The notes beneath the pieces were generated by a model, which saw nothing but the letters and a program-made list of their open reading frames with translations, searched no databases and had not been told where the DNA came from. DNA of 64,000 bases from Candidatus Zhuqueibacterota bacterium (lineage in GTDB: Bacteria; Zhuqueibacterota; Zhuqueibacteria; Residuimicrobiales; Krinioviventaceae), in NCBI GenBank assembly GCA_034521575.1, contig JAXHMJ010000002.1, positions 1,001,089 through 1,065,088 on the forward strand. Reading direction: 5' to 3'. A program made the translations under genes and the position numbers. This document shows, one piece after another, positions 13,908-63,753 of this stretch; the first letter of the stretch is position 1; every line of letters starts with the position of its first letter.

Positions 13908-14050
13908 AATATAATTCCTCTTTAGATAGAAGAGAAACGCTTATAAATAACAGGTTGTTCCCGTACAACAGAGAAAAGAGATATGAATAAAAAGTACAAA
14001 ACAGACCATACCATAGTATGTACTGTTATACCCTAGCATATTTCATTAAT

Positions 14051-14752: not shown

Positions 14753-14755
14753 GGA

Positions 14756-30134: not shown

Positions 30135-30920
30135 TTAGGTTTTTGCACGTAAGTAATTTCGTCGATTTTTTCTATGAGATTTTCTACGATTTTTCTTGTC
30201 GGAATCTCGCACTTCATTTTGAATTTGAATACGGAGTTCTCGCACTCTTTCGATGTTAACTTTTTCGTTATAATTTTCATGACAATAGATTGCCAGCAGC
30301 AAATATGTAATGAGGCCGCCGAGAATTTGAACCATAAGTCCGTACTGACTTCGAGCTATGAGATGATAGACTTTGAGATGGCGTTTCCACCAAGCGAAGA
30401 AATTTTCAATTTCCCAACGAAGTTTGTATGCCTGAGCAACATCTTCTGCAGAGAGGTCATAACGATTTGTCGCGATCCAGTATTTTACATTGCCGATTTT
30501 ATAACCGACAAGTCGTATCGACTTTTTTGTTTGATTGGTGCCCGGCGTCCCCAATAAAACTATAGCATCATAAAAAACAATGCTTTCTGGTTTTATGTCA
30601 TGTGCATAAAGACATATTTTTTTCGTCGATGCTTTGATGCGGCAGAAAAATTGACGACCGTCCTCCTGCCATTGGTCAAAGCGTTTATGGCATTGATAGC
30701 CCCGATCAAGAACGCCGGACTGGTCAGAAGAGAGTATTTGATCGACAAATGGTCGTTCACCGGCTAAACCGCCTGTGAGATATAGTTTTTTTGGAATGGA
30801 CCGATTAATATCAAAACCGAGATGAACTTTTGCCTTTTTAGAGCCGTTTCTATAATCAGCCCAAGTCATTGAAAGAACAGCATCAATCAAAGAACCGTCG
30901 ATGGCAACAAGCTCCCCCAA
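30135..30920 (-). CDS. IS4-family DDE transposase, C-terminal catalytic part (orfB). Its frame is open upstream to the A7 run at about 31034.
   Basis: The DDE_Tnp_1 region includes LVAIDGS, DRGY and WEIENFFAWWKRHLK. The stop lies inside the left inverted repeat. Confidence 0.8.
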   Translation of the reverse strand: MGELVAIDGSLIDAVLSMTWADYRNGSKKAKVHLGFDINRSIPKKLYLTGGLAGERPFVDQILSSDQSGVLDRGYQCHKRFDQWQEDGRQFFCRIKASTKKICLYAHDIKPESIVFYDAIVLLGTPGTNQTKKSIRLVGYKIGNVKYWIATNRYDLSAEDVAQAYKLRWEIENFFAWWKRHLKVYHLIARSQYGLMVQILGGLITYLLLAIYCHENYNEKVNIERVRELRIQIQNEVRDSDKKNRRKSHRKNRRNYLRAKT

Positions 30921-31575: not shown

Positions 31576-32372
31576 TTATTCAAACACAACCACAGCTCTT
31601 GGGTTCAAATACCTGAAATGTAAAAGATTCAGTGTAAAACAACTCGACTTCTTTGCTGTCGTGTGAATGATATCCAAATTGACAAATCAGCGCCCAGCGT
31701 CAACTGAAAATCTTCGCCCCGCTGGGATACCAGAAATACATCGTCGACCTGTGGACTGAGTACAATCTGTCCTCCCAATATCTCTTCAAGCTGACGACGT
31801 ACCGGATAACCACCGGTATAGCTTGAGATTTGCTGCCATTTCTTCGGGTTGACAACCAATGTATAAGGGCCGCCGATTGAGGCATCTTCCAATACCCGAA
31901 TACCCCGAGTCACAACCGCCAGGGCTTCTTTTGCATCTTTGGGGAGTGAAAGCGGCTCGTTTTCCGAAGCTTCTTTCAACCCCTGAATCCGACCTTGTTT
32001 GAAACCGTAATAAATAGCTTGTTCTTCAAATTTTGCGGTGTTTTCAGCAGCTTTTTCCAGAGAATCAAGATCGACATCCCGGGCGCCGCGGATCAGATTA
32101 TCTATTTCCCAAATATTCAGTTTGAACGGCACACGAACTTCAGTCAAAGGAAGCATGCTGAACGTACCAAACTGGACTTGTTTATTGGATTGACCTTTCG
32201 GAATATCAAGACGTCCCAGCGGAATGGCGCCGAAATCCCATCCTTTGGGTCCATCCACATCTACAACTTTACGGGCAGACAGGTTATTTACCAGAACCGC
32301 GCGTGCGGTTTCATCTATTTCTTGCCATGCCTCATCCGTGAGAGGGGCTAATGACCGTTTTAGAATATCCAT
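31576..32372 (-). CDS. Family-1 encapsulin nanocompartment shell protein (Linocin_M18 fold). The 3' end carries two +1 frameshifts (about 31676 and 31595). The uncorrected ORF is 31629..32372.
   Basis: The sequence MDILKRSLAPLTDEAWQEIDETARAVLVNNLSARKVVDVDGPKGWDFGAIPLGRLD... matches the encapsulin N-terminus. After ...GADLSI the annotated frame reads WISFTRQQRSRVVLH*. Skipping one nucleotide at each of two sites instead gives GYHSHDSKEVELFYTESFTFQVFEPKAVVVFE*, which matches the conserved encapsulin C-terminus. Confidence 0.8.
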
Positions 32373-32392
32373 ATAAAAATCTCCTCGAATTT

Positions 32393-32749
32393 TTATGATA
32401 ATTTTCCAATACCCAAATCACTGCCTCCGGATGCTTTAGAGGCATCGTTACCGTTTTCTTCTTCCTCTTCAACTTTTGTAACATCCCGTCCTGTAAACAG
32501 GTATGTACGCAAATGTTCATCCCAGGCCGGGACATTCTGGCGCAGCCATTCCAGGGTCATACAGGCATGTTCGATTTCTTCATCGCGATTGTGTTCAACT
32601 ATATTTTTCAAATGATCATCATTGGTGGTTACAGCGCGTTGATTATACCAATCAACTGCTTCCACTTCTTCTTTAAGGCTATTAAGAGCACGGGTAATAT
32701 TTCGTGCTTGTTCTCCAAGTTCTTCAGGGGGTTCATGATAGTATGACAT
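32393..32749 (-). CDS. Encapsulated ferritin-like protein (EncFtn/Flp), the cargo, carrying a C-terminal encapsulin-targeting peptide.
   Basis: The protein is 118 aa. The ferritin-like helical core (E..H motifs: EEVEAVDWYNQRA...EEIEHACMTLEWL) is followed by an acidic linker and the terminal ...GGSDLGIGKLS*, which matches the GSLxIGxLK cargo-loading consensus. The gene lies 20 bp upstream of the shell gene. Confidence 0.8.
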   Translation of the reverse strand: MSYYHEPPEELGEQARNITRALNSLKEEVEAVDWYNQRAVTTNDDHLKNIVEHNRDEEIEHACMTLEWLRQNVPAWDEHLRTYLFTGRDVTKVEEEEENGNDASKASGGSDLGIGKLS

Positions 32750-32821: not shown

Positions 32822-33151
32822 TCAATTTTGATACAATAGAATAGAAACATTCTCAACGGTGACGAGTCCACCTTTCAGAGCATCCTGAATAATGGGCAAA
32901 AATGCATCAATTTTATCCGGCACATCAATCATTTCAATAACCAGGGGCAAATCTTCGGACAATCTCAAGATTTTTGCATTGTGAACTACGCTTGTGCGCC
33001 CATATCCCAACTGTCCCCGAAGTACAGTGGCTCCTGCAATATGCATTTCTCTGGCTTTATTTACAATCCATTCAAACAAGGGTTTTCCCTCATAGTGATC
33101 AGATTCCGCAATATAGATGCGCAGCAGTTGGCCTTTTTCAGGCAGCGGCAT
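32822..33151 (-). CDS. DUF190 (PII-like) protein of the kind commonly paired with CrcB.
   Basis: The protein is 109 aa. LLRIYIAESDHYEGKPLFEWIV...GATVLRGQLGYG matches the DUF190/PII-like fold. It lies 10 bp downstream of crcB. Confidence 0.7.
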   Translation of the reverse strand: MPLPEKGQLLRIYIAESDHYEGKPLFEWIVNKAREMHIAGATVLRGQLGYGRTSVVHNAKILRLSEDLPLVIEMIDVPDKIDAFLPIIQDALKGGLVTVENVSILLYQN

Positions 33152-33160
33152 ATGTTCTCC

Positions 33161-33553
33161 TTATATCAATCTAGACAAATACAGTCCTGTGTAAACCGCA
33201 AACAGCCCCAGTCCTGCCTGCACTCCGATGTTCAACGCCATCATCAACAATTGTCCATCCCGAAGCAACATTAAAGATTCGTAGGCAAACGTCGAAAACG
33301 TGGTAAAGCTTCCCAATCCACCGACCAATATCAACAACCGGATTTCCGGAGAAAACATTTGTTTCGAGTTGACCAAACCCATGAAAAATCCAATCAGCAG
33401 GCAACCGAGAATATTGACAAACAATGTGCCCCATGGGAAAAAAGACTGGGGAAAGCATTTCTGAATCCATCCACTGGAGAAATAGCGCAAGGCAGCGCCT
33501 AAAAATCCACCGGCTCCGATATATAATAATTTAATCCACACTATAAACTCCAC
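33161..33553 (-). CDS. crcB: Fluoride ion channel CrcB/FluC.
   Basis: The protein is 130 aa with 4 TM helices. Conserved blocks are GGFLGAALRY, GTLFVNILGCLLIGF and GGLGSFTTFSTF. Confidence 0.85.
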   Translation of the reverse strand: MEFIVWIKLLYIGAGGFLGAALRYFSSGWIQKCFPQSFFPWGTLFVNILGCLLIGFFMGLVNSKQMFSPEIRLLILVGGLGSFTTFSTFAYESLMLLRDGQLLMMALNIGVQAGLGLFAVYTGLYLSRLI

Positions 33554-35233: not shown

Positions 35234-35962
35234 CTAAATTTTACCGAACAGGCTCATAAATTTCAGCTTCCATACCATCCAAACCGCTTCCCAGACGATT
35301 TTTCGCGACATTTTAGAAGTCCCGGCCCGGCGGTCTATAAAAATAATAGGAACTTCACCCAGAGTAAATCCTTTTTTCCAGGCTTTGAAATTGAGCTCGA
35401 TCTGAAAAGAATATCCGTCAGACTGTACCTGATCCAGATTTAGATTCTGCAATACTTCCCGTCTGAAGCATTTGAATCCGCTTGTGCAATCCTTGACAGG
35501 TAATCCTGTAACCAGTTTTGTATACAGACTGGCTCCCATACTGAGTATCAATCGCGAAAGCGGCCAGTTGACAACATTCACACCGTGGATATAGCGGGAT
35601 CCCAACACAATATCATAGGTCTGACTGGCCTTGAGCAGATTGGAGAGTTCGGCTGGATCGTGCGAAAAATCCGCGTCCATCTCAATAACGCGATCATAGC
35701 CGTGTTCCAACGCATATTTAAAACCGCGGACATAGGCAGTCCCCAGGCCGGATTTTGTCGGACGTTTGATGAGTTTAACCCGGGATTGTGGACCCGCTAT
35801 TTCCTCTACAATCCCTCCGGTTCCGTCCGGGGAATTGTCGTCAATGACCAAAACATCCAGTCCGTCTATTTTCTGTCTGAGAATCGCTTCAATAATCTTT
35901 AAAATATTCTCAGACTCGTTATATGTGGGAATAATTACCAGGGATTTCACCGATTTCTCCAT
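35234..35962 (-). CDS. GT2 polyprenol-phosphate glycosyltransferase (Dpm1/GtrB-like polyprenol monophosphomannose/glucose synthase).
   Basis: The protein is 242 aa. Blocks IIPTYNESENI, VIDDNSPDGT, DADFSHDP and GFKCFRREVL match Dpm1-type GT2 enzymes. Confidence 0.8.
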   Translation of the reverse strand: MEKSVKSLVIIPTYNESENILKIIEAILRQKIDGLDVLVIDDNSPDGTGGIVEEIAGPQSRVKLIKRPTKSGLGTAYVRGFKYALEHGYDRVIEMDADFSHDPAELSNLLKASQTYDIVLGSRYIHGVNVVNWPLSRLILSMGASLYTKLVTGLPVKDCTSGFKCFRREVLQNLNLDQVQSDGYSFQIELNFKAWKKGFTLGEVPIIFIDRRAGTSKMSRKIVWEAVWMVWKLKFMSLFGKI

Positions 35963-36859
35963 TTAAAGATTTAAATGATCCTTGAGTATTCTCAGGCTCT
36001 CACGGTTATCCAAAAGTAAAAGTCCGAGTTCAGTTATTGCCTTGTCCACAACAAGACCGGAGTTTAGCGGCCGCGGTGCTTTTTGTCCGAGTTCCGGGGT
36101 TGATATCGCAGTCATAAGCCGTAAATCCAGATCAAATACCTCGCAAATCTGCCGGGCAAATTCAAGGCGGCTGTTGATTTCTTTCCCGGCTATATTCAGA
36201 ATACCTGTATATCGTTGTTCAATAACACGCCAAATATTTTCGGCGAGATTGTCGTTCAGTGTGGCATTCCCAATCTGATCATTTACAATCTTTACCCTGC
36301 GGCCGGCTTTGAGTTCACCGATCAACCATTGAACAAAATCGGGTCGCTGGTTTTTAGACGTACCATACAGCACCATCGTTCGAATTATGGTCGACTCTAC
36401 AGGCGCACCGCGAAGAACATTCTCAGCTGCCAGCTTGGATTTGCCGTAATAACCAAGAGGATTCGGCGTCGCATCCTCTGTATAGGGTCCGTTTTTCCCG
36501 TCAAAAATATAATCGCTCGAAATTTGCAGGATACGGCTGCGGGTTTTTCTGGCAGCATAAGCCAGATTTTCTGCCGCCTCAACATTGACAGTCCAACAGA
36601 GTTCACGCTCTACCTCTGCCCTGTCCACATGTGTATAAGCAGCGCAGTTTATAATCCAGTCCGGAGAAAAAGCATCAAGAACATCAAAGGTTTTTCCACG
36701 GTCTGTAAGATCACAGGACACATAGTTGGGCTGTGTCAGAGGCTGTGGAGATTCCGGAAGATCGATACAAAGCAGCTCTTTGTTATCAGGTGTGGAATGT
36801 AAGAGCCGTTGTCCCAATAGTCCCAGGCTTCCGGCTATTGCAATTTTTTCCATAATCAT
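35963..36859 (-). CDS. rfbD: dTDP-4-dehydrorhamnose reductase (RmlD/RfbD family NAD(P)-dependent reductase).
   Basis: The 298-aa protein has the RmlD substrate-binding-domain blocks GSLGLLG, INCAAYTHVDRAE and YGKSKLAAE. Confidence 0.7.
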   Translation of the reverse strand: MIMEKIAIAGSLGLLGQRLLHSTPDNKELLCIDLPESPQPLTQPNYVSCDLTDRGKTFDVLDAFSPDWIINCAAYTHVDRAEVERELCWTVNVEAAENLAYAARKTRSRILQISSDYIFDGKNGPYTEDATPNPLGYYGKSKLAAENVLRGAPVESTIIRTMVLYGTSKNQRPDFVQWLIGELKAGRRVKIVNDQIGNATLNDNLAENIWRVIEQRYTGILNIAGKEINSRLEFARQICEVFDLDLRLMTAISTPELGQKAPRPLNSGLVVDKAITELGLLLLDNRESLRILKDHLNL

Positions 36860-36862
36860 TGT

Positions 36863-37321
36863 CTATAGTTTACACTGGTTAGCGCGGAACTGATCAAGCT
36901 TTTCCTGAATTGACGGATTTGCAGCGGCGAATATCTGAGCAGCATAAATGGCTGCATTCACAGCTCCTGATTTTCCAATAGCCATGGTCGCAACCGGAAT
37001 ACCGCGGGGCATCTGTACAATGCTGTAAAGCGCATCCAGTCCATTCAGGGCGGATCCACCGAGCGGAACGCCTATAACCGGCACAGTGGTATGACTTGCA
37101 ATGACCCCCGGCAAATGTGCAGCCATTCCGGCGCCGGCAATAATCAGAGCGTAACCGTTTTTCGCGGCGTTTTTTGCAAATTCCGCCGTATCATCCGGCG
37201 TTCTATGAGCGGACATCACAAAGGTATCAAACTCGATATCAAAATAGGCAAGATATTCGTGAGCATGCTGCATAATTTTTTCATCCGAAGTACTACCCAT
37301 AATAATGGCAACTTTTGGCAT
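36863..37321 (-). CDS. purE: 5-(carboxyamino)imidazole ribonucleotide mutase PurE.
   Basis: RBS GGAGG is followed by ATG 37321. The sequence MPKVAIIMGSTSD...IIAGAGMAAHLPGVIASHTTVPVIGVP is the PurE signature. Confidence 0.85.
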   Translation of the reverse strand: MPKVAIIMGSTSDEKIMQHAHEYLAYFDIEFDTFVMSAHRTPDDTAEFAKNAAKNGYALIIAGAGMAAHLPGVIASHTTVPVIGVPLGGSALNGLDALYSIVQMPRGIPVATMAIGKSGAVNAAIYAAQIFAAANPSIQEKLDQFRANQCKL

Positions 37322-37386
37322 CCACGCCTCCATTGTATTTAAACGTTCACAAAGCAGTATCCGGTCTTCCGGACACCCTTTACTGT

Positions 37387-38418
37387 TTATTTAGTTTGCG
37401 TTTTGAATGTCCTGGCCATCACATCCAACTGGCGCAGGTAGGGCAATTTTTTGTCGCCCGGCGCAAAGACCGCCATATCCACAAGATAAAGGCGCTGAGC
37501 ATCAGGATCATAAAACCCATAACTTTTAAAAGGGCCGCCTGCCGGTCTCGTTTTTTTGTCATTTTGCCAAACACCGGTCAATTGAATAGCCGGAAAACCA
37601 CAAAAATCGACTTCGCGCACCGTGAGGTCTATTTTATCCGTCACATAATCACCATCGTAATAGGGATCAGAAATATCAGCCCGGCGCTGCAACATCCAGG
37701 ATTTGCTCAATTCATAGGGATCTTCACTGGGTTCGTAGTAAACAGAAATCCAGCGCTGCGGGTCCAGTCGTTCAAGCAGGGTCAGCCGTTCTTTGAGAGA
37801 ATCCACGACTATAAAAAAGTCCGGCTGAACCCGTAGACTCCAGCCATGTTCTTTCATAAAGCGTTCTGAAAGTTCTTTTTTCTCCATGTGACGGAACAAG
37901 TTGGTTTTAACCCGTTCATTGACAAAATCATTGAATATATCAAATAATTGATCACTGTTGGCCTGTAAATCCTGTTGCAAATCCTCAACATTATTGGAAA
38001 CAGCCACAACAAGCATTTGATTGGTGGACCAGGCATCCCGTTTGTTAAATAAAAAGGCGTTATTCTGAATTACCTGCTCGCGCGAACTTTCTGACAGCAG
38101 ATTATCAACATATTCTTTCACCTCTCCTTCTGCGTCAAGAGTGCCAAGCAGTAAGATGTTCGGAACCCGGGAGAGGCGTCCCAGTTGATCAGGATTTCTC
38201 TGCAAAAAGGAAAAAACAGCTTCAGGTTGCGGAGTAAATATTTTACGCGCCAGAACATCACGAACCTCATCCTGCACCTTTAGCCACAGAGTGGAATCCG
38301 CCACCACAATAACCTTGTTTATATTGCCGAGCGATGGGCGTTTTTCTCCGCACGAAGAATACAAGCCGATAATCATCAACACGGTGAGCAGCAAAACAGC
38401 TGTTCGTTTTAGCCTCAT
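37387..38418 (-). CDS. DUF4837-family lipoprotein.
   Basis: The lipoprotein signal is MRLKRTAVLLLTVLMIIGLYSSC. The roughly 340-aa soluble domain is of a kind common in Bacteroidota-like genomes. Confidence 0.55.
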   Translation of the reverse strand: MRLKRTAVLLLTVLMIIGLYSSCGEKRPSLGNINKVIVVADSTLWLKVQDEVRDVLARKIFTPQPEAVFSFLQRNPDQLGRLSRVPNILLLGTLDAEGEVKEYVDNLLSESSREQVIQNNAFLFNKRDAWSTNQMLVVAVSNNVEDLQQDLQANSDQLFDIFNDFVNERVKTNLFRHMEKKELSERFMKEHGWSLRVQPDFFIVVDSLKERLTLLERLDPQRWISVYYEPSEDPYELSKSWMLQRRADISDPYYDGDYVTDKIDLTVREVDFCGFPAIQLTGVWQNDKKTRPAGGPFKSYGFYDPDAQRLYLVDMAVFAPGDKKLPYLRQLDVMARTFKTQTK

Positions 38419-38479
38419 ATTTACCTCCATTGTCATTTAATGTTCTATCCTATAAAACGGATAAAACCCTGCATTTCTT

Positions 38480-39487
38480 TCAGGATTTTGCGGAAAACCC
38501 TTTGCACGTTTCCTTTCGAAATGCAAACAGGATGCCGCCGGGTACTGTGGCAATAATTGCAACAAGATAAGCAAGAAATTCGAATGATACCACCTGTGAA
38601 GCGGCGACACCAATACTGGCAAACATAGATACACCGCTCTGTTCCCGAACCCCGATCCCCCCCATAGAAATGGGGAGACTGGCAGCCATCGCGATAATGG
38701 GAACAAACATAAAAAAGAACATAACATTGGTTTCTACCCCCACAGCGCGGGCAGCCCAAAAATGGACAATTACACGCAGCGCCTGCACACAGAGGGAAAC
38801 CACCAAAACCTTGGTCATCAGACCTTTTTTATGACGAAAATAATTAATCGCTTTGTAAACATCGCGTGTTTTATTAAACACGACAGACGGTATAAAGTGT
38901 TTCACATGTTTTATTAAAAAACGGGCAGCCTTTTCATTGAATAAAAGATACAGGCCTAACAGCCAGGCTGCCATAATAATGGCAATAAAATAAACAGTAT
39001 TCACAACCGTTAAAAGCTGAATACCGATGAGCGCAACAATCAAAGCCATCGAAGTAAGAGACAAAAAGCCGATAAATCTGTCAAATATTACAGTAGAAAG
39101 AGCGGCTGTTGAATTGCCGGATGTTTTTGTAATATCATAGATGCGAAAGGCATCACCGCCGACATAACCGAGTAAAAAATTATTAAAAAAAAGGCCGACA
39201 TGATAGTATGACAGGACCTGTCTAAACCGAACCGCAATATCCTGTGAACGCAGCAGGAGAAACCACTGAAATGAACCCATTATATTGCTCACTGCAAAAC
39301 ACACAATACCAATCAGGACATACCACCAATTTGCATGTCTTAACCTGAACAAGATTGAATCCAGGCCAATGCGGTTAAGGATAATAGCAACAAGTGCGGC
39401 ACTGATCGTAAACTTTAGAATGGTTATGAGCAAATTTCGTTTCGGTCGTGCTTTGGATTCCAAGATATTCCAATTCCTTTCAGACAT
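38480..39487 (-). CDS. Flippase-like membrane protein (lysylphosphatidylglycerol-synthase TM-domain / UPF0104 family).
   Basis: The protein is 335 aa with about 8 TM helices. The start KRNLLITILKFTISAALVAIILNRIGLD is typical of UPF0104 proteins. The gene lies between the GT-C and GT2 genes. Confidence 0.6.
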   Translation of the reverse strand: MSERNWNILESKARPKRNLLITILKFTISAALVAIILNRIGLDSILFRLRHANWWYVLIGIVCFAVSNIMGSFQWFLLLRSQDIAVRFRQVLSYYHVGLFFNNFLLGYVGGDAFRIYDITKTSGNSTAALSTVIFDRFIGFLSLTSMALIVALIGIQLLTVVNTVYFIAIIMAAWLLGLYLLFNEKAARFLIKHVKHFIPSVVFNKTRDVYKAINYFRHKKGLMTKVLVVSLCVQALRVIVHFWAARAVGVETNVMFFFMFVPIIAMAASLPISMGGIGVREQSGVSMFASIGVAASQVVSFEFLAYLVAIIATVPGGILFAFRKETCKGFSAKS

Positions 39488-39522
39488 GCCCTCCCCTCTG
39501 AATCAGAGGGGAGGATTTTCTG

Positions 39523-42168
39523 TTATTCCAGAGAGTCAATCAAACTGGTATCATTTTTAATTTTTTCTTCAAGCTGCTGCATCTTGCGCTGTGCATTCTG
39601 ATCATCCGGATTTGTTCCCTGCCACTTGTTCATAGCCTCAAGAGCTTGTTCATACTTGCCCTGCTGTTCAAGCATGTTTATGTAGGTTCCGGCGATATAG
39701 CTATCCGAAGGATTCATTTCGTAAGCATATTCAACAAGGTCCAGGCTTTTTTCATTTGCATCAGCATACTGATACATATTGGCGACCTGTACCATCAATC
39801 TGGGATCCGGCGGCGGGATCACTTTAAAGGGAATACGTTCCTGCATTTTATCAAGTGCCCGGACCACAGCTTTATCATCTCCCTGGCGCCTGTATTCCCA
39901 CACCAGACGCAGATAGGCGGCACGATAATTCTGCAGCAAGCCGATGATACTCTTGTTAAAATATACATCCGGATTATCAAGATTACGATATTTGAATTTA
40001 TCCAGGTTCTTTTCCAGCTTTTCACCATACACATGTTCAACCTGGTAGGGTACCAGTTTAAAACAAAGTCCGTCCATTCGCAGATAGTTATCAAGATTGA
40101 TTTTGTTCTGATCCGACACGGTTACCGCGAAATAGATCGGTTTCTCCCACCTGTTGGCCAGAATAATGTTCAGAATCATATAATCCTGCACTCGCAGCGC
40201 CTGGCCCATGATTGTGGGTTCGACTGTAACACGCATTTTTGAATCCTGATACTCGGAACTTTGCAGAAAAAGAGTTGAATCCTGCATATCATTTAGAGCA
40301 TCCTCTTTGCCCTGTTCCGTGACCGGGATGGCGATGGTGCTTTTTTCCCATCTCTGGATATTGATATCATCAATGCGATGGTCTGGAATCGAAATGGGAA
40401 CTTTGGGCTCCTCATGTTTAAGTTGTTTGATATACCAGTCTGTGTTCAACAGACTCAGATTAACCACCCGCACATCCGGTCGAATATTCTCTACATATTG
40501 CAAATACCAAAGTGGAAAGGTATCATTATCGCCATTTGTGAACACAATACCATCTTTTTCACAGGTTTCAAGGATATTATAAGAATAATCATAAGCGACA
40601 AAATTACCGCTACGGTCATGGTCCTGAAAATTGTGCGCAAACAGTATACCTGGCGCCATAACCAAGGCGAGCAAAATAGCCACACCTGCATAAACCATTC
40701 TCAGTTTTATTTTTTCAACCCGTTCCTGTAACCATTCAAGAACCGCTGTCACCCCCATTCCGATCCATATACTGAATGCAAAGAATGACCCGACATAGAC
40801 ATAATCCCGTTCTCTGGGCTGTGGATCAGGCTGGTTCAGATAAATAATAATCGCGAGACCGGTCAGGAAAAACAACGCCAGAATAAACAGCGCGTGTCTC
40901 CAATGCCTGGAGAAATGGTGAACCATTCCGAGAACGCCCAGGAGAAACGGAAGGGCAAACAAACCATTGAACGATAAATTTTCGGCAATAAACCCATCCT
41001 GGCCGATCGTTGTTCCTTTTCCGATAAACTGCCAGCCAAAATAACGGAAATACATTTTTTTAATCTGATAATTCCAAAAGAAATCCATCTGTTCGTCCCA
41101 GCGAAACGTTTTATAATCCTGGTTCGGATATTGCCGTTCGAACTGCCATTCAGGCGGCAGGTCCGGAAAACGTCTCGGGAATGTGCCCCAACTGCCGTAC
41201 TGCTCTCGATTCAGATATTTGACCATTTTTTCCATCGTCTCCGGATTATTCTCATCCACGGCCGGATCTGCATTGGAACGGATGTAAATCATAGTATATG
41301 TTGAATAACCGGTTAAGACGAGCAACAAAGCCATAAACGCCAATGTAAAAATGCGTTTTTTCTGTGAAATACCATACAAGACCCCTCCCAACACGGCAAG
41401 AATTACAATCAGGAGAAACCACATGCCGACAGATCCAGCGATTCTCGGAACAAACTGAACGACACCCGGGTAAATCACAGCAAAGACCCCGCCGGTGATC
41501 AAAACAAAGTACAATAGATTTTTCCAGGTAATGATCTCGCCGCGTTGGTCCAGAATTTTGAAATAAATAATCATAAAAATAGCCGGCAGTGCCAGAATCA
41601 TCAGCAAGTGAACACCGATAGCCAGTCCGACAAAATAGGCGATCAGCAGCAGATAACGTTCATTTCCGGGCTCATCGGCTTTTTCCAGCCACACCAAAAT
41701 GCACCAGACAATCATAGCCGTAAACATCATCGAAATGGCATATACCTCTGCTTCCACGGCACTGAACCAGAATGTATCGCTAAAGGCAAAGGCGAGTGAT
41801 CCAACCAGACCGCTGGCGAGCAGAATCAGGGTATCGTAAAAAGATTTTGATGCACCGCGCCATTGTTTGATCAGTCGCACAATAATCAGGAATGCAAGCA
41901 TAACCGTCAAAGCTGAAGACAGTGCTGAAACAATATTGACGCGTAATGCAATATTGCCGGCGATAGGTAAAAGAGTAAAAATCCGTCCGATCAACAGGTA
42001 AAACGGCGCACCCGGGGGATGCGGAACTCCAAGAATATAGGAGCATGTGATAAACTCACCGCAATCCCAGAATGAAGTTGTCGGGGCGATTGTGATCAGG
42101 TAAACAATCAACGAGCTGACAAAGGTCAAGCCGCCAAAAAGCCTGATAATGTTTTTTTCATTCTGCAT
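39523..42168 (-). CDS. DUF2723-family GT-C-type glycosyltransferase (PMT/ArnT-like, GT39/GT83-like) with a C-terminal TPR region.
   Basis: The protein is 881 aa. The N-terminal motif ...TSFWDCGEFITCSYILGVPHPPGAPFYLL is the DUF2723/PMT_2 motif with its DxE-type loop. More than 11 TM helices are predicted. The C-terminus has TPR-like repeats (...YEQALEAMNKWQGTNPDDQNAQRKMQQLEEKI). Confidence 0.7.
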   Translation of the reverse strand: MQNEKNIIRLFGGLTFVSSLIVYLITIAPTTSFWDCGEFITCSYILGVPHPPGAPFYLLIGRIFTLLPIAGNIALRVNIVSALSSALTVMLAFLIIVRLIKQWRGASKSFYDTLILLASGLVGSLAFAFSDTFWFSAVEAEVYAISMMFTAMIVWCILVWLEKADEPGNERYLLLIAYFVGLAIGVHLLMILALPAIFMIIYFKILDQRGEIITWKNLLYFVLITGGVFAVIYPGVVQFVPRIAGSVGMWFLLIVILAVLGGVLYGISQKKRIFTLAFMALLLVLTGYSTYTMIYIRSNADPAVDENNPETMEKMVKYLNREQYGSWGTFPRRFPDLPPEWQFERQYPNQDYKTFRWDEQMDFFWNYQIKKMYFRYFGWQFIGKGTTIGQDGFIAENLSFNGLFALPFLLGVLGMVHHFSRHWRHALFILALFFLTGLAIIIYLNQPDPQPRERDYVYVGSFFAFSIWIGMGVTAVLEWLQERVEKIKLRMVYAGVAILLALVMAPGILFAHNFQDHDRSGNFVAYDYSYNILETCEKDGIVFTNGDNDTFPLWYLQYVENIRPDVRVVNLSLLNTDWYIKQLKHEEPKVPISIPDHRIDDINIQRWEKSTIAIPVTEQGKEDALNDMQDSTLFLQSSEYQDSKMRVTVEPTIMGQALRVQDYMILNIILANRWEKPIYFAVTVSDQNKINLDNYLRMDGLCFKLVPYQVEHVYGEKLEKNLDKFKYRNLDNPDVYFNKSIIGLLQNYRAAYLRLVWEYRRQGDDKAVVRALDKMQERIPFKVIPPPDPRLMVQVANMYQYADANEKSLDLVEYAYEMNPSDSYIAGTYINMLEQQGKYEQALEAMNKWQGTNPDDQNAQRKMQQLEEKIKNDTSLIDSLE

Positions 42169-42177
42169 TTTTTCTCC

Positions 42178-43299
42178 TCAGTGCTGTTTTTTTGTAATTT
42201 TCTCAATAATGTCGAGTGCATGATCTGCCGAGGCATCCCATTGAAAAGATTCCGCCCAGCGTCTCGACTGCACCGCTAATTTATTTCTCAATTCTGCATC
42301 ATCCAATAGCATATTTAGATAATCCTTCATTTTGCTCAAATCGCCGTACGGATAAAGATAGCCGGTTTTTTCATGCACCACCGAATCCCGCAATCCCGGT
42401 GAATCAGATGCAATAACCGGGACGCCGCAGGCGTTGGCCTCGATGACCGTGAGTCCCCATCCTTCTTTGGGAGAAGGATTTACCGCCACCCATAGTCGGT
42501 TAAGCCACTGCACTTTTTCTTTATGTGTGACATGACCGGTAAAATGTACACGATCCCGAAGTTCAAGCCTGTCCACTAACTTTATCAGCGACGCCTTGTA
42601 ATCTCCGTCTCCGATGATCACACACCAGGCATCCGGTCTATGTGAAAATATTTCCGGCAAAGCCTTTATCAAATGATCGATTTTTTTATACTTTTTCAAC
42701 CGCCCCAGATACCCGATCAGAGGTTTGTCCTCTTTTTGGTGCAGCCAGGAATATTTTTGTACATCCACGGCATTCGGCAGAGCATAGATATCAGTCGAAA
42801 TACCCTTGTCCCGCAGTTCTTTGCGTGTACTGTCTGACACCACTGCAAACGGCGTGTTTCGATAAAAAAACGGGACCAGGCGTTCACTCTGACAAACATA
42901 TTGCGCCTGCAGATAAGACGCCTGCATGAAAATGCTTTTTCCGAAAAAATGATGCACAATAGCAATCAGCGGTTTTTTGACAAAGAGCGGTGTAAAAAAC
43001 GGTATCTTGTTGATATCATCAAAGACAATATCAAAATTATACGTGCGGTTCAGTTTTTGATAAACAAACGGCACCAAAAAATTAAACGTATTGCGGGAAC
43101 CGCAGCGAATCACGCGCATGCCGTCAATCCATTCCGATGTGGCAGCGCCTCCATATCGACAACACAGAAAAGTGACATGGTGTCCTTTGGCCGCTACACG
43201 CCGAAAAATTTCGTGAGCATGAACTTCGGCGCCTCCACCCAGCGGATGTGTGATATCCTGCCAATTGATGATCAATATGTTATACTGCTTTGTATTCAC
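42178..43299 (-). CDS. Glycosyltransferase family 4 (GT4, Glycos_transf_1).
   Basis: The protein is 373 aa. The N-terminal blocks are HPLGGGAEVHAHE. The C-terminus EGWGLTVIEANACGVPVIASDSPGLRDSV carries the E-x7-E motif. Confidence 0.8.
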   Translation of the reverse strand: MNTKQYNILIINWQDITHPLGGGAEVHAHEIFRRVAAKGHHVTFLCCRYGGAATSEWIDGMRVIRCGSRNTFNFLVPFVYQKLNRTYNFDIVFDDINKIPFFTPLFVKKPLIAIVHHFFGKSIFMQASYLQAQYVCQSERLVPFFYRNTPFAVVSDSTRKELRDKGISTDIYALPNAVDVQKYSWLHQKEDKPLIGYLGRLKKYKKIDHLIKALPEIFSHRPDAWCVIIGDGDYKASLIKLVDRLELRDRVHFTGHVTHKEKVQWLNRLWVAVNPSPKEGWGLTVIEANACGVPVIASDSPGLRDSVVHEKTGYLYPYGDLSKMKDYLNMLLDDAELRNKLAVQSRRWAESFQWDASADHALDIIEKITKKQH

Positions 43300-44078
43300 T
43301 GTTCCCTTTCATCTTTTATACCGATCACACCGATATCCATGAACGTATAAAAGGACAGTGAAAAGGTCTTGAACCATTTGGCAAATGCTTCAGCGGCGGC
43401 CGAGATCAACGGGATTTTCGGATAAGGGGCTATATTGATTCTTAGCTTTAACAATGCTTTGCGGAGAGCGCGATAAAACAGCCCCGGACGCATCCAGCTG
43501 CCGTAACGGTGATAAATATGAAAACCCTGTTGACGGAACATAGCTGCGAGTTGACCAATCGTAAACTCGGTTTCCCATCCGGCGAACCATTTATTCATCC
43601 ATATTAAAAGATGCTTGATCAGTGTATACAAATGAAATGTTTGTGGTACGTCCGCGAGCGTATAGCCGCCACGGGCGGTAATTCTGTAATTTTCCTTTAT
43701 AATCTCTTCCGGATTGCTAAAATGTTCCAGCAAGCCCTGATGATAGACCACATCCATACAGTCATCTTTAAACGGAAGATGAAACGCATCTCCTTTTACC
43801 AGAAAGACCGGCTTTTCCATTTTGTGCGCCAAATGTTTCATCACCTTGAGGGAGTTGTCCGCATAGTCGAGCAGAATAACGGTTGCACCCAGATCAACGA
43901 GCTTGAACCCGTCTCGACCGGAGCCGGCGCCGATTTCAATAACCCGTTTTCCGTCAAGTTCTGTAAGAGACTGAACCTGTCCAATGATTCGTGCAGAATT
44001 GGAATAAACCTCATCAATCGTCTCCGGATCCCAAAAGTCCTCCCACACTTTTTGATTATGCTGTTCCTGTTTCGGCAT
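43296..44078 (-). CDS. Class I SAM-dependent methyltransferase.
   Basis: Motif I is VIEIGAGSGRDGFKL. Its stop overlaps the GT4 start (ATGA). Confidence 0.75.
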   Translation of the reverse strand: MPKQEQHNQKVWEDFWDPETIDEVYSNSARIIGQVQSLTELDGKRVIEIGAGSGRDGFKLVDLGATVILLDYADNSLKVMKHLAHKMEKPVFLVKGDAFHLPFKDDCMDVVYHQGLLEHFSNPEEIIKENYRITARGGYTLADVPQTFHLYTLIKHLLIWMNKWFAGWETEFTIGQLAAMFRQQGFHIYHRYGSWMRPGLFYRALRKALLKLRINIAPYPKIPLISAAAEAFAKWFKTFSLSFYTFMDIGVIGIKDEREQ

Positions 44079-44228
44079 TCAAGTTCCTGTTTGAGTTTTC
44101 CATCGCCTCGACTTTTAAATAACCGCAAATATTAAAATAAAAGAGTCTGGCAAGAAAAACAAGTTAAATGTCATAAATGTCTATCAAATAATGGTAGTAT
44201 TCATTTCATCATAAAACTCTGACAGATT

Positions 44229-50781: not shown

Positions 50782-53287
50782 ATGAAAGGGGTTAACATCA
50801 TGAGGTGTAGAGCGTATTCAGGGTTATGGGTAGTATTCTATGTTCTAACTGCTTTTTTTCTGTTCAGCACCACACTTTCGGCCGCTCCGACGGTAAACGG
50901 TTTGTTTTACGGAGATAACGATCAAAGTCAATACCAATTTTTGGCTGAAAATGGCACAGGCCGCGGTACAATGTATTACTACCTTGAGCAGGATGTTTTG
51001 TATATTGCTGTAATTGTAAGTCCCTCCGTAAATGACAATGTGATAGACGATGGGCAAACCGCATATGCAAACAGCGTGGGCTGGACTCCTCCCCACCAGG
51101 CTGAAAAGCTGATTCAATCCGATCATTTGAACTTTACGTTCACAGCAGACGGCGTTTCCTACACCTGGAAACAGGGCTATCTTTATGATGCAGATGGTGA
51201 TAAAAGCCCCTCTGAAGCGGACTGGCTGTCTGACTATCATGACGGCAGTCTGGGAGGCGGAACCCTACCACCCGGACTCGTATCTGCCAGCTCGATGCAG
51301 TGGAATATGAATAACAGTCCATGGGTGAGCACATTCACCGGGACCAGCAATGATTGGAAATCCCCCTATGATCCGGCGAGTCCGAACAGCTTGACGGCTC
51401 CATATGAACTGGGTTATCCGCACTGGGACAGTGTGAACGAGTGGGAATGGGCGATGGTGTATGAAATGAGCATTCCCATAAGCAATTATTCCGGCGCCAT
51501 AACACTGCAGGTAAACAGCGCGCACAATTCTCCTTCCAAAGACGATGAGGAAGACATTCCCATTCCTCCGGTGACACTCACAGATTATGGTGATCTGCCC
51601 AGCCCTTTTCATACGCTGAGCACTGATAATGGAGCCAGTCACTTGATTTTAACAGAAAACAATCCCACTCTGGGCAGTAGTGTGGACGCTGAAAATGACG
51701 GTCAACCTGACGGCAAAGCCAGGGGTGATGACAATAATTACCATGATGATGAAGACGGCATTCAATTCAAATCAGCTGTTTCACCCGATTATGAGGCAAT
51801 ACTTTACGTTACTGTGAAGAATACAGGATACCTGAGCGCCTGGATGGATTTTAACGGCAATGGAAATTTTGATACAGGTGAGCAATTTCTCTCGGATGTA
51901 ACCCTGTCAACCGGCACACACAGTTTAACCTTTACCCCACCGGCGGATGCAGTGACTGGAGTCACGTATGCCCGCTTTCGATACAGCACAGAAACCGGAT
52001 TAACGGCAAATGGTTCAGCTGCAGACGGCGAAGTAGAAGATTACCGGATTGAAATCCTGTCATTGCAATATGTGGATTACGGCGATGCTTTTAGTGATAA
52101 CATTATGAATGTATGGTGGCCGGAAGCCGGGAGAGGCGGTTGACGCAACCCGAGCCTATTTGGGAGACATGGTAGACACAGAGGGCGTATACACCGGTAG
52201 TTTGGCTGCCGATGCAGACGACAATAATGATGATACGAATGATGAAGACGGCATCACCTTTTACCATGATTATAACAATGACGGAATCTGGGTGGAAAAA
52301 ACAGATAATATTTTTGTCAGTAATTATACCTATCAGATCAAAGTCACGGTCAATCTGGGCAGCGGCTATTCAGCTTTATTAGCCGGATGGTTTGATTTCT
52401 CCGCAGACGGTATTTTTGGAAACTTTGACAATGAGATTATTATCAATAACGATCTGTTCCAGAATGGTCTGGGCAAAACGCAACCCGGCGACTTGAGTTT
52501 GGCAAAAACTGCCGCCACATTGACCCGCTACTATACATTTACCGTTCCCGATATTGTTGGCGGAGATTACACCTTTATCCGATTCAGGCTGGACACCTAT
52601 ACTGAAGGTGGTGGACTTTTATCTTCCGGATTTGGCGCGGGATACGGCGAGGTCGAAGATTATTACGCCACTCTGGATGATACACCGCCGGTCTCTAGCC
52701 AATTAACCTCATTCGAGGCGGAACAATCGGAAAAAGGCATCCGCTTATTCTGGAACTATGAAAACCTGCAGAACCTTGTAGGGTTCAATGTGCTGCGAAG
52801 CGTTGAAGAAGCAGGTCAATATAACCAAATCAACAAGTCGCTCTTGTTGTGCCTGGAGCCAAACCCGCAGTCTTTTACTTTTACGGATTATGATATCCTG
52901 AAAAATAAAAACTATTTTTACAAACTTGAGGCGCTCGATCTGAACGGTAAAAGCACCCTCTACGGTCCGGTTTGCGCTGCATGGAACACGGGAATTGAAG
53001 AGATACCGGAAAATTATAAATTCGTGGATAATTATCCGAATCCCTTTAATTCAAATACCTGGTTTGAATATGTACTGGCCTCTGCAGGGCATGTCAAATT
53101 ACGTATCTATAATATAAAAGGCGAACTCGTCAGGACTCTGGTTGACTCGCATCAATCAAAAGGATCGTACAAGCTGAAATGGAATGCAGAAAATGATAGA
53201 GGCCGATTCGTACCGACAGGCATTTACATCTATCAATTCCAATGCGGCGACTATGATAAAACAGGCCGTATGTTGTATATGAAATAA
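50782..53287 (+). CDS. T9SS cargo protein containing GEVED domains. The gene is split by a +1 frameshift near 52125-52140.
   Basis: The N-terminus is a signal peptide (alternative start ATG 50800). The motifs GEVEDYRIEIL (ORF1) and GYGEVEDYYATLDD (ORF2) are GEVED-type. The C-terminus DNYPNPFNSNTWFEYVL...GIYIYQFQCGDYDKTGRMLYMK is a T9SS C-terminal domain. ORF1 50782..52143 and ORF2 52109..53287 overlap in adjacent frames. Confidence 0.65.
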
Positions 53288-61600: not shown

Positions 61601-63753
61601 ACCGGAAGAGGATGAAAACTATTTGATCTATGCCACTATTGATCATCCTGATTACGCTGATATCCAGGTTCCGTTTTTGGGGAAATCCAGATCAGCGATC
61701 CCCCCTATTCACTGCGTAAAATTTCCGGTGACAGCTTGACCGGTGCGGTCGGACAAAACTTGTCCTCGCAGCTCGTGGTCCAGGTTATTGACAGCGACAG
61801 CATTCCGGTACGAAACACACCGGTATCATTTACACCCCTGGGAGACAGCGATGTGCGTCTGCTTGATGATACTCCCATTTTAACCGACTATAACGGCTAT
61901 GCCGGCATCCAAATCGGATTTGACAAGCTCAGCGGTTCGCATCAAATTGAAGCCAGATTGTCAGGAAATTCCGACACGATTATTTTTATCGCATTTGCGC
62001 GCGCCGGCGCTGCTTCGCAGCTGCTGGCCGCCAGTCATGCCAAACAAACGGCAACGGTCGGTAAAACTTTTAATGATGTGGTGATCGTTCAGTCACAGGA
62101 CCCGAACGGCAACCCTGTCGGCGGAGTGAAAGTTGAATTCAGTCTAATTGAAGAACCCGGCCCGGAAAATCTCGCCGCGGTGCTGCAACCCAGCACTTTG
62201 ACTACCAATGAGCAGGGTTTAGCCGCTGCGACGATACTAATGGGGCATAAAACAGGTGAGTATATTTTCGAAGCGACATCACCTGATCTACCTGATGAGA
62301 ATGTTCAGTTTAATGTCACCGGAAAAAGTGATCAAGCCTTTTATCTAAGAAAATATGCCGGTGATGAACAGAGTATGACTCGCGGCAGAGAGCTGGTCTA
62401 TCCGTTGGTCGTACAAATCACCGATCAATATGGCAATCCGGTTCACGGAGAAACCGTATATTTTGCCCCGGAAACGGAATCCGGCTATACAGAAAATCAA
62501 ACAACAACAAGCGACAGCAGCGGCCTGGCATCCACACGCTGGACAATCGGTTATCTTGATGTAAATTCATTATTGGCGACCAAAGTCGGCCTAGAGCCCA
62601 ATTTTGTACGTTATTATGCCACCGGTGTTGACAATGCCTTTCCCGAGTTTACTGATATGCCCTCGCAAGTGACGGTTAATTATGGTGAACCCGTAATCAT
62701 TCCACTACATGCAGAGGACGGCGATCAGGACCCGCTCACATTTTCCGTTCTCAATCAACCCTCTAATTCCGAATTTGATGCAGATTCCAATACATTCAGT
62801 CGGACACCCGGGTAGATCAGAAAGGAACCTGGACCGTCAAATTCCAGGTAGAAGACAACAAGTCCGGTTATTTAAAGGGATTTGATATCGATTCGGTCAC
62901 GATTAACGTGATATCCCAAATAAAGATTTATTCGTTTTATCCGACTGATTTGGCGGAAATCCGAAAGCCGGAAATCATTGAATTCTCGATTCGTGTTACA
63001 GATCAGGGCGCATCGCAATTGAACTATCAGTGGTCGGTCGATGGCGTTCCTGAGCCGGTCAATACGAACAGATTTTCGTTTTATAGTACAAAATATGCAC
63101 GCGGCGACCATATCATCAAAGTCATCGTTACGGATGGAATATCATCAGACAGTCTGACATGGAACACGGTAGTGACCAAAGTGGAATTATCAGCATTTGA
63201 AGCTCAGAGTCTGCCGTTTGAAGGTATTCAGTTGGTCTGGGAAACCGCAAATGAGGTGAATAACGCCGGATTTAATGTGCTGAGGAGCAACAGTGAGGCA
63301 GGCCCGTTTGAAAAAGTGAATCCGCGGTTGATTCCCGCATCGCCCAAAGGGCACTATACTTTTACAGACTCGACCGCAGCCGGCGGACATACATTCTATT
63401 ATAAACTCGAGGATCAGAGCATCAGCGGCTATAGCAATCAAAGTGAAGCCATTAGGGTTAAAGCCGAATTCCCGGAAGAATATAAACTGCTGCAAAACTT
63501 TCCCAACCCCTTTAATCCGGAGACGAATATCAGATTCCAGCTTCCGGAGAAATCCGACACTCGTATTTCTATTTACAACATCCGGGGTCAATTGGTCAGA
63601 ACTCTGGTCAACAGCAAGTTGGCGCCCGGATATTATGAACTTTCATGGAATGGTAAAAACAACCAGAATATGCAGGTTGCTTCAGGCGTTTATTACTATC
63701 GCTTTCAGTCCAATGATTATCAAGCAATCAAGAAAATGGTTTTACTCAAGTAA
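55693..63753 (+). CDS. Giant T9SS-secreted multidomain adhesin or enzyme of about 2,700 aa. The domain order is signal peptide, SGNH/GDSL hydrolase, FN3, LamG-like, CBM-like (YEAESG...) domain, about 10 Big_1-type Ig-like repeats, He_PIG-like domain, T9SS C-terminal domain. The gene is fragmented by at least 9 frameshifts.
   Basis: Start is TTG 55693 or 55705, the latter after GGAGGA. The signal peptide is KRIFILVIILILPAFAYS. SGNH blocks are GNSITAG, LGTNN and DGVHPN. The FN3 domain reads SIRLEWFAPSDDG...YFFAIRAWD. Repeated ...ITD.NGNPV.N.PV.F....G.G......T.DANGIA... units are Big_1-like. The end NFPNPFNPETNIRFQLP...KKMVLLK* is a T9SS C-terminal domain. The ORF pieces are 55693..56052, 55892..56902, 56928..58070, 58058..59491, 59606..60646, 60537..61739, 61736..62815 and 62908..63753. 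Protein-like sequence continues across every junction in a neighbouring frame. Confidence 0.6.

Follow-up and report, generated by a model that had tools for sequence, protein, structure and literature searches.

In a 64,000-nucleotide stretch of DNA from a Candidatus Zhuqueibacterota bacterium (contig JAXHMJ010000002.1 of assembly GCA_034521575.1; hereafter the window), a run of eight minus-strand genes at positions 35234-44078 includes one for an 881-residue DUF2723 protein. By every sequence and fold feature testable here, this protein is a member of glycosyltransferase family GT117, to which CAZy assigns the human protein O-mannosyltransferase TMEM260. The same cluster encodes a family 2 glycosyltransferase (GT2) of the Dpm1/Ppm1 type and a multi-transmembrane (TM) UPF0104 protein. 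The arrangement is real and has precedent, and the cluster is a plausible polyprenol-phosphate-sugar glycosylation system. We lean moderately toward the interpretation that the TMEM260-like enzyme glycosylates proteins in the periplasm from a polyprenol-phosphate sugar, with the GT2 of the cluster as the donor synthase and the UPF0104 protein as the candidate flippase. These three families are indeed linked, but only in one lineage and in a way that is intertwined with housekeeping synteny.

The DUF2723 protein is a predicted TMEM260-like glycosyltransferase

The DUF2723 protein (39523..42168, minus strand) matches PF11028, which Pfam names "Protein O-mannosyl-transferase TMEM260-like", with 228.8 bits as compared to a gathering cutoff of 24.2, and a match to PF28495 (TMEM260_2) is precomputed for it and for its homologues. 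When solved structures were searched with phmmer, human TMEM260 (9rql) was matched at E=3.9e-22, and a profile of 20 sequences matched the TMEM260 structure at E=1.7e-24. The similarity detected by HMMER is limited to two stretches of the window protein, residues 12-214 and 512-590, while alignment by hhalign to vertebrate TMEM260 fragments (330 residues or shorter) returned a probability of 98.6% with coverage of columns 19-224 only. The family is large, containing 3,026 representatives at 50% identity with E<=1e-30 and 13,691 with E<=1e-10.

Human TMEM260 O-mannosylates IPT domains (PMC10214176), so the earlier note is out of date in holding that no acceptor of the DUF2723 family has been defined by experiment. 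Structures of TMEM260 (9RQL, 9RQM and 9RQN) place Asp52 and His67, both essential for donor binding, in the loop between TM helices 1 and 2, Arg264 and Tyr267 in a donor-loading loop, Arg355 in TM helix 10, and the catalytic base, Asp441, in a luminal Rossmann-like domain (bioRxiv 10.64898/2026.03.17.711096). Mutation of D52, H67 or D441 abolishes activity, and the tetratricopeptide repeat (TPR) domain of the enzyme holds an extended acceptor peptide (same source). In the HMMER alignment these three essential residues are paired with D35 (D52), H50 (H67) and D547 (D441) of the window protein, all of which are invariant in 20 homologues that share 49-67% identity. The motifs D.GE, HPPG and GD[NS]D are found in 83 of 83 homologues from the Fibrobacteres-Chlorobi-Bacteroidetes (FCB) group. 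D35 forms part of a donor-site motif, W-D35-C-G-E38, located with H50 in the first periplasmic loop, and within it the D35-x-G-E38 pattern is also invariant. The second HMMER stretch joins window residues 512-590 to TMEM260 residues 406-484 (i-E=3e-6) and places N545-G546-D547 on R439-G-D441; D547, the candidate catalytic base, lies in an FTNGDND motif of the periplasmic α/β (Rossmann-like) domain. In addition, R321-E-Q-Y324-G (within N-R-E-Q-Y-G-S-W) resembles L-R264-E-E-Y267-G-T-F of TMEM260 and is a candidate donor-loading-loop motif; R321, Y324 and G325 are invariant in the 20 homologues, and RE.YG occurs in 69 of the 83 FCB homologues.

An AlphaFold2 (AF2) model of the protein, with a mean predicted local distance difference test score (pLDDT) of 75.9 and a predicted template modeling score (pTM) of 0.69, contains ~13 TM helices across residues 1-517, an α/β domain at ~524-735 with β-α elements at 541-705, and seven TPR-like helices at 739-880 (pLDDT ~90). 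The last of these regions also matches TPR_19 and TPR_14 in Pfam, and residues 746-866 are matched by solved TPR proteins, both designed and natural. With regard to an asparagine ladder in the TPR region, only N747 is invariant in the 20 homologues. The transmembrane fold of a C-type glycosyltransferase (GT-C) was recovered, and the earlier note's proposal of a GT-C architecture survives its own refuting condition, the lack of such a fold or of a catalytic acidic loop, given the D35-x-G-E38/H50 loop, the modeled fold and the placement of D547 in the soluble domain. Because the number of TM helices is odd and the N-terminus is basic, as judged from the AF2 model and hydropathy, the loop holding D35 and H50 and the C-terminal domains are predicted to be periplasmic. 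Alignment and modeling thereby show, for the window protein, its family membership, its fold and the presence of three residues that are mutationally essential in TMEM260.

The cluster encodes a predicted donor synthase and a candidate flippase

The GT2 (35234..35962, minus strand; 242 residues, PF00535) is most similar among solved proteins to the catalytic domain of Pyrococcus furiosus DPMS (5mlz, E=8.4e-33, residues 4-233), with its D96-A-D98 (DxD) motif aligned to the DAD of that enzyme. These features agree with the Dpm1-type assignment made in the earlier note, and the protein is a predicted polyprenol-phosphate hexose (possibly mannose) synthase of the Dpm1/Ppm1 type. Hydropathy analysis found no hydrophobic or TM segment in it; human DPM1 and mycobacterial Ppm1 likewise have none. 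At NCBI, an identical protein is named 'polyprenol monophosphomannose synthase', which is an annotation only.

The gene that directly precedes the GT2 encodes a 298-residue NAD(P)-dependent RmlD-like reductase of the dTDP-4-dehydrorhamnose reductase family (35963..36859, minus strand; PF04321, 204.5 bits), which could supply a 6-deoxyhexose donor. It scores 222.5 bits against TIGR01214, 1.5 bits short of the cutoff of 224.05, and is matched by solved RmlD proteins at E=1e-31 to 1e-17 and also by MAT2B at 4e-22. No rmlA, rmlB or rmlC turned up among the open reading frames (ORFs) of the window that were scanned.

The UPF0104 protein (38480..39487, minus strand; 335 residues) scores well above the family cutoffs (PF03706, 120.6 bits vs 33.4; TIGR00374, 83.8 vs 43.2). 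It belongs to the family of the MprF flippase domain and the AglD C-terminal domain and has at least seven hydrophobic segments by hydropathy. No solved relative was found by sequence, and its single-sequence AF2 model (pLDDT 53.6, pTM 0.24) was unusable for a fold search. Within the cluster, no other protein is as good a candidate for flipping the lipid-linked sugar, or a glycolipid, and it perhaps also anchors the soluble GT2.

Organization of the cluster

In transcription order, the eight genes encode the methyltransferase, the GT4, the DUF2723 protein, UPF0104, DUF4837, PurE, the RmlD-like reductase and the GT2. All six genes named in the earlier note were located where it placed them on the minus strand; its list omitted DUF4837 and PurE, which lie between UPF0104 and the RmlD-like gene, so that about 3.5 kb and a distance of five genes separate the GT2 from the GT-C. 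From the ORF coordinates the intergenic distances are -4, 9, 35, 43, 53, 3 and 0 bp. The GT4 gene begins with a 4-nt overlap of the methyltransferase stop, and the GT2 start directly abuts the stop codon of the RmlD-like gene. The earlier claim that all gaps are 60 bp or less thus holds for the called ORFs (maximum 53 bp), and would be exceeded only if DUF4837 starts at its second ATG, the one after GGAGG, which widens that gap to 61 bp. Co-directionality is real but not special to the interval: the minus-strand run reaches upstream through RecG and DUF4139 to ValRS (50276), and past the GT2 it continues through α/β hydrolase, LOG, CrcB, DUF190, EncFtn and encapsulin genes, ending at 31629. 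Since the run extends on both sides, co-directionality alone cannot delimit a module.

The remaining members of the cluster are less specific. The GT4 (42178..43299, minus strand; 373 residues, PF00534 and PF13439), a predicted cytoplasmic, retaining glycosyltransferase, has as its nearest solved relatives 2jjm (a group-1 glycosyltransferase) and PimB' (3okc), followed by BshA (5d00) and PimA. The class I S-adenosylmethionine-dependent methyltransferase (43296..44078, minus strand; 260 residues, with Methyltransf_11/25/31 matches) has MftM as its best NCBIfam match, far below the cutoff. Both proteins appear generic by sequence, a sugar O-methyltransferase being one possibility for the latter. 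DUF4837 (37387..38436, minus strand; 349 residues, PF16125, 129 bits) is lipoprotein-like, with an N-terminal signal/lipobox-like sequence (…LYSSC), and no solved relative of it was found. Considered as a possible glycosylation substrate, it contains two D-S/T-x motifs, about the chance expectation. PurE (36863..37333, minus strand; PF00731, 204.9 bits; TIGR01162, 194.3 bits vs a cutoff of 149.6) is an N5-carboxyaminoimidazole ribonucleotide mutase and a housekeeping gene of purine biosynthesis.

A scan for sigma-70 promoters and terminators gave no convincing operon boundaries: counts of promoter-like sites were at background and those of terminator-like sites modestly above it (28 vs 24.5 and 24 vs 14.9), and nothing notable was detected in the 150-bp spacer between RecG and the methyltransferase (44079-44228), the sole sizeable gap in the minus-strand run. 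This spacer holds TTG-N17-AATATTTG, which by eye is near the Bacteroidota-type promoter consensus (TTG-N19-TAnnTTTG), and it is a possible start of a transcription unit. Between the DUF2723 stop codon and the UPF0104 ATG there is a perfect, GC-rich 12-bp hairpin (CCUCCCCUCUGA-UUC-AGAGGGGAGG; 39490-39514, minus strand). The 66-nt region that contains it has a folding energy of -29 kcal/mol (z=-3.9), its 3' arm includes the GGAGG Shine-Dalgarno sequence of UPF0104, 4 nt ahead of the ATG, and the coding strand has no U-tract after it. The hairpin could occlude the ribosome-binding site or stabilize the upstream mRNA; its reading as a conserved regulatory element was rejected, as eight relatives lack it at the corresponding intergenic site.

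Conservation of the gene neighborhood

To describe the neighborhood of DUF2723 genes, one genome per species was scanned, which yielded at least 599 relatives, and 80 loci (numbered with the prefix L, as are the further genomes named below) were kept with up to 10 kb on either side. The loci were annotated by tblastn, jackhmmer, clustering and Pfam; ORF calls were crude and were cross-checked on six Pfam-annotated contigs. A Dpm1-like GT2 is present in 16 of the 80 loci and UPF0104 in 14, and both accompany DUF2723 within 10 kb in 11. All 11 of these trio loci are of the KSB1/Calditrichota type, with DUF2723 proteins more than 38% identical to that of the window. Among the 11 loci closest to the window, GT2 and UPF0104 are each found in eight, and the closest loci that do not have them are mostly on short contigs. 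RmlD is present in 14 loci and RecG in 18; GT4 orthologues with high scores adjoin DUF2723, upstream or downstream, in 18, and methyltransferase orthologues adjoin it in 12. DUF4837 follows UPF0104 or DUF2723 in 16 loci, and PurE holds the same position in 13.

Five arrangements were recognized. Type A (KSB1/Calditrichota) reads RecG-(DUF1844)-methyltransferase-GT4-DUF2723(x1-2)-UPF0104-DUF4837-PurE-RmlD-GT2 and was confirmed in four further genomes by Pfam-annotated contigs (L082, L083, L085 and L086). Type B (Marinimicrobia and others) reads ValRS-DUF4139-RecG-DUF1844-DUF2723-GT2-DUF4835, where the GT2 is a different protein of 350 residues. Type C (Ignavibacteria/Bacteroidota) reads LepA-LepB-LepB-HemW-DUF2723-(methyltransferase)-GT4, type D (Chlorobi) GlgA-x-HemW-DUF2723, and type E (Ignavibacteriales) small ORF-DUF2723-GT9-like.

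Several features of the relatives differ from the window. Two tandem, full-length DUF2723 paralogues occur in L004, L005, L007 and L015 (~10001-15500 in each), while the window has one, which suggests sub-functionalization, for example toward different acceptors or donors. The distinct GT2 of ~350 residues (DNASTDGS … GFAGGCN … LNNDT motifs and a hydrophobic C-terminus) adjoins DUF2723 in 14-20 of the 80 loci, directly downstream in L012-L017, L020-L031 and L056 and upstream in L008, L009 and L034; these loci mostly have no GT4, and the enzyme may be an alternative partner. In several relatives (L013 13677-15782, L085 19705-21777, and also L020, L021, L026, L028 and L034) the Dpm1-like GT2 is directly followed by a GT2-CoA_binding_3-Bac_transf fusion of ~550-700 residues of the phosphoglycosyl-transferase type, the position of which is taken by the α/β hydrolase in the window. 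In Ignavibacteria- and Bacteroidota-type loci (L018, L032, L035, L037, L042, L046, L051, L061 and L064), DUF2723 is preceded by LepA, by a pair of genes for signal peptidase I and by a HemW-like gene of the radical-SAM type. Proximity to a signal peptidase is intriguing for an enzyme expected to act on translocating proteins, but LepA-LepB is a common housekeeping synteny.

Proposed mechanism and alternative explanations

The mechanism that we propose is drawn by analogy from human TMEM260. On the cytoplasmic face, the GT2 would load a hexose, probably mannose, onto polyprenol phosphate, and the lipid-linked sugar would be flipped across the membrane, for which UPF0104 is the candidate. At the membrane-periplasm interface the GT-C would bind the polyprenol-monophosphate hexose via D35, H50 and probably R321 and Y324, and the groove formed by its TPR and Rossmann-like domains would hold an extended, unfolded segment of an exported polypeptide. 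D547 would then act as a general base that deprotonates a Ser/Thr hydroxyl, leading to inverting transfer of the sugar. What the scheme takes by inference is which sugar is donated, that a protein accepts it, that UPF0104 acts as the flippase, and what the GT4, methyltransferase and RmlD-like proteins contribute.

Several observations, some of which are taken up below with the alternatives on which they bear, weigh against protein glycosylation by such a system. No NCBIfam equivalog cutoff is reached by the GT2, whose best matches (AglJ, PpgS, PgfS, Dol-P-hexose transferase and ArnC) fall far below theirs. The pairing of R264/Y267 with R321/Y324 depends on a short motif whose local alignment does not rise above shuffled sequences (186 of 500 reach its score) and which lies past the point, column 224, at which hhalign stops; R355 of TMEM260 may match R452 or R454 in an invariant QPRERDY motif, to which it was not aligned. 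The active-site loop (residues 45-71) has a pLDDT below 50 in the AF2 model. Among the window ORFs that were scanned with Pfam there was no member of the GtrA family, and no TMEM260-type sequon (GP..[GA]GG..[ST]) is present in any window ORF, a very small sample. Literature searches found no publication that characterizes a bacterial DUF2723/TMEM260-family member, and no experiment on any.

Overall, the three-part glycosylation system put forward in the earlier note is upheld in its GT-C fold and its Dpm1-type GT2, has an archaeal precedent, and is weakened by the lineage-limited linkage of the trio and by the interposed PurE and DUF4837 genes. These last points bear on an alternative that we consider unlikely though worth serious weight, namely that there is no dedicated module: the gene order would be inherited, the GT2, RmlD-like and UPF0104 proteins would serve general envelope pathways, and the GT-C would draw on a cellular pool of polyprenol-phosphate sugar or on another donor. 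The linkage of the three families that the earlier note anticipated, observed in 11 of 80 loci, does not occur in any of the 32 loci with a DUF2723 protein 38% or less identical to that of the window (those of Ignavibacteria, Chlorobi and Bacteroidota), so that it is confined among FCB loci to the closer, KSB1/Calditrichota-type relatives. PurE is embedded in the block and RecG/ValRS stand at its edge; part of the conservation is plain synteny, and conserved gene order alone is therefore not evidence of shared function. ValRS-DUF4139-RecG-DUF1844 also precedes DUF2723 in 15-22 loci, including those of Marinimicrobia with no GT2 or UPF0104 nearby, and elsewhere, in further clades, the neighbors of DUF2723 are LepA-LepB-HemW or GlgA. 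A Bacteroidia metagenome-assembled genome has DUF2723 alone, without glycosylation neighbors and with the trio absent within 10 kb. Conversely, the RmlD-like and Dpm1-like GT2 genes are adjacent in L081 (8997-10717; a genome of 5.2 Mb) with no DUF2723 within 10 kb, and therefore this pair looks like the tighter functional unit. Set against these points, the methyltransferase-to-GT2 block survives in L085 despite a different upstream flank and the insertion of two genes, the start and stop codons of methyltransferase/GT4 and RmlD/GT2 overlap or abut, and archaea independently link the same three families, with UPF0104 fused to the Dpm1-like AglD and adjoining a PMT/STT3-like GT-C (PMC5898192). 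The cluster is a lineage-specific juxtaposition within a longer housekeeping syntenic run and not a self-contained operon-module.

It is also conceivable, but in our judgment rather unlikely, that the GT-C acts on a lipid or glycan (lipid A, the core of lipopolysaccharide (LPS) or a glycolipid that the adjacent GT4 makes), as ArnT, Emb/Aft and YfhO do, its TPR domain serving partner or envelope contacts. Across phyla the neighbor of DUF2723 is the GT4, often with the methyltransferase and switching sides, and not the Dpm1-like GT2; together with the ~350-residue GT2 and a GT9 heptosyltransferase-like gene (17 of 80 loci), it gives DUF2723 a company typical of LPS-core or glycolipid assembly. 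The GT2-Bac_transf fusion that follows the Dpm1-like GT2 in several loci fits the same picture, as do the lipid-acceptor enzymes PimA and PimB' among the solved relatives of the GT4. The similarity of the window protein, however, is specifically to TMEM260 and includes its Rossmann-like domain, in which D441 (D547 here, invariant) activates a peptide threonine, and the TPR domains of OGT, TMTC and TMEM260 bind extended peptides. Because this soluble-domain base and the TPR domain are specifically conserved, a lipid or glycan acceptor appears disfavored on the alignments.

A further possibility, which we likewise hold to be doubtful, assigns UPF0104 to the GT4: it would flip an inner-leaflet glycolipid made by the GT4, perhaps with the methyltransferase, as proposed for GpgS/GpgF and HexS/HexF, and the GT-C would either make use of this lipid, decorate it or have no connection with it. 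UPF0104 does partner GT4 enzymes in glycolipid systems: in gpgSDF, a flippase candidate of the UPF0104 family accompanies a GT4 and a deacetylase (PMC12713373). PplT/UPF0104 proteins are tied to phospholipid metabolism and form GT-B fusions in several phyla (bioRxiv 10.1101/2022.03.11.483950). In the window both genes flank the GT-C gene in one tightly packed run. The cluster has no deacetylase, however; GT4 accompanies DUF2723 without UPF0104 in Ignavibacteria and Bacteroidota, UPF0104 occurs without a GT4 orthologue in L008, L009, L013, L015 and L020, and the flippase activity of GpgF is itself only proposed, not proven. An operon of the gpgSDF/hexSDF type was rejected, no deacetylase being encoded between 34467 and 44078 and GT4 and UPF0104 not co-varying across loci.

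Periplasmic protein glycosylation by the TMEM260-like GT-C may be extended to a broader, and in our view improbable, proposal: that DUF2723/GT117 proteins throughout the FCB group are the missing initiating transferase of Bacteroidota-type general protein O-glycosylation, acting from polyprenol-phosphate mannose on D-S/T-[AILVMT] in the periplasm. The GT-C may in that case attach the reducing-end hexose (mannose in Elizabethkingia). Bacteroidota-type core glycans contain a hexose (mannose), a deoxyhexose (rhamnose) and glucuronic acid and are often methylated, and reviews from 2022 and 2025 describe the oligosaccharyltransferase, the core-glycan enzymes and the core flippase as undiscovered (PMC8729774; PMC12871550). 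The 2025 review proposes a search for homologues of eukaryotic O-mannosylation enzymes (PMC12871550). If the proposal is true, the KSB1 cluster would keep together genes that fit the chemistry of the conserved core: a mannosyl-phosphate-polyprenol synthase, an RmlD-like reductase serving the deoxyhexose branch, a methyltransferase to add the frequent O-methyl groups, and the GT4. Two points count against it: the current Bacteroidota model is en-bloc transfer from undecaprenyl diphosphate, and extension of a periplasmic O-mannose by a cytoplasmic GT4-type enzyme is topologically awkward. No bacterial characterization of a Bacteroidota O-mannosyltransferase was found in the literature that was searched.

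The wider interest of the GT-C lies in its family. TMEM260 was recognized as a protein O-mannosyltransferase only in 2023, with a structure in 2026, and published mentions of its bacterial relatives go no further than "distant homologs". The branch formed by these relatives is large, it retains the essential residues of the human enzyme, and in one lineage it is found beside a plausible donor synthase and flippase. This provides a testable model for periplasmic protein O-glycosylation in the FCB group, including Bacteroidota, whose general O-glycosylation transferase is missing, and prokaryotic homologues would be useful for studying the mechanism of a human disease enzyme (SHDRA syndrome).

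Other features of the window

Proteins with C-terminal sorting domains of the Por_Secre_tail or FlgD_ig type are encoded at 6294-8099, 14756-15904, 52109-53287 and 62908-63753. They show that the organism uses type IX secretion, a hallmark of the FCB group, and type IX cargo proteins are plausible clients of periplasmic O-glycosylation. Two GEVED-domain proteins (50782-53287) are encoded upstream of a run of seven plus-strand ORFs at 55892-63753, of which two have no Pfam match, four are Big_1/Invasin_D3 Ig-like paralogues (58058-62815) and the last carries a type IX sorting domain; this run resembles a cluster of surface adhesins. In the last part of the co-directional minus-strand run, the genes for an encapsulin shell protein (Linocin_M18, 256 bits) and an EncFtn-like ferritin cargo (31629-32749, minus strand) form a family-1 encapsulin iron-storage pair, and a CrcB fluoride channel gene stands beside a DUF190 gene (32822-33553, minus strand). 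A DDE_Tnp_1 transposase gene with a TTG start (30135-30920, minus strand), flanked by the encapsulin pair on one side and a PAS histidine kinase gene on the other, likely marks the end of the conserved syntenic block.

Comparison with known systems

Of the systems that resemble the cluster, gpgSDF of P. aeruginosa and hexSDF of C. difficile share with it a GT4 and a UPF0104 flippase candidate in a tight cluster. They differ in having a deacetylase, which the window lacks, and in that the GT-C here sits between GT4 and UPF0104; the linkage of these two genes is, moreover, inconsistent across relatives of the window. The logic of GtrA/GtrB/GtrX, of CsbB or GtcA with YfhO, and of ArnC/ArnEF/ArnT is the same as that proposed here: a cytoplasmic GT2 loads a monosaccharide onto polyprenol phosphate, the product is flipped by a small membrane protein, and the sugar is then transferred by a GT-C in the periplasm. 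In those systems, however, the flippase is of the GtrA or ArnEF type and not UPF0104, GtrB and ArnC have C-terminal TM helices that the window GT2 does not, and the acceptors are O-antigen, teichoic acid and lipid A, whereas a protein is predicted here. The corresponding genes of the cluster are also not contiguous.

The cluster would work like actinobacterial Ppm1/Pmt and eukaryotic DPM1/PMT, with the difference that their GT-C belongs to GT39 and that of the window to GT117. PMT has MIR domains, while the window GT-C has a TPR and a Rossmann-like acceptor domain, and its catalytic base is predicted in the soluble domain. An anchor like Ppm2 or DPM3 was not seen in the cluster. Closer in composition is the archaeal system of AglD, UPF0104 (arCOG00899) and a PMT/STT3-like GT-C (arCOG00563), in which the same three families are linked and UPF0104 is predicted to flip the Dol-P-hexose that the Dpm1-like domain produces (Makarova et al. 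2015, PMC5898192). There a single polypeptide often combines GT2 and UPF0104, and the GT-C comes from a different family; that system, too, is a comparative-genomic prediction only.

The GT-C itself is most like human TMEM260, an endoplasmic reticulum (ER) enzyme. It would act in the periplasm instead of the ER lumen, with a bacterial polyprenol in place of dolichol as the donor lipid. It has ~13 TM helices as compared to 11 and 881 residues as compared to 707, with an insert of ~100 residues at 298-405, and sequence similarity is seen only in the N-terminal core and where the Rossmann-like domain begins. TMEM260 acts on IPT domains, and no IPT-type sequon was found in window ORFs. Both proteins have PF11028 and TMEM260_2 and the same domain order, from GT-C membrane core to Rossmann-like domain to TPR, and in the window protein the equivalents of D52, H67 and D441, and probably the R-E-x-Y-G donor-loading motif, are kept.

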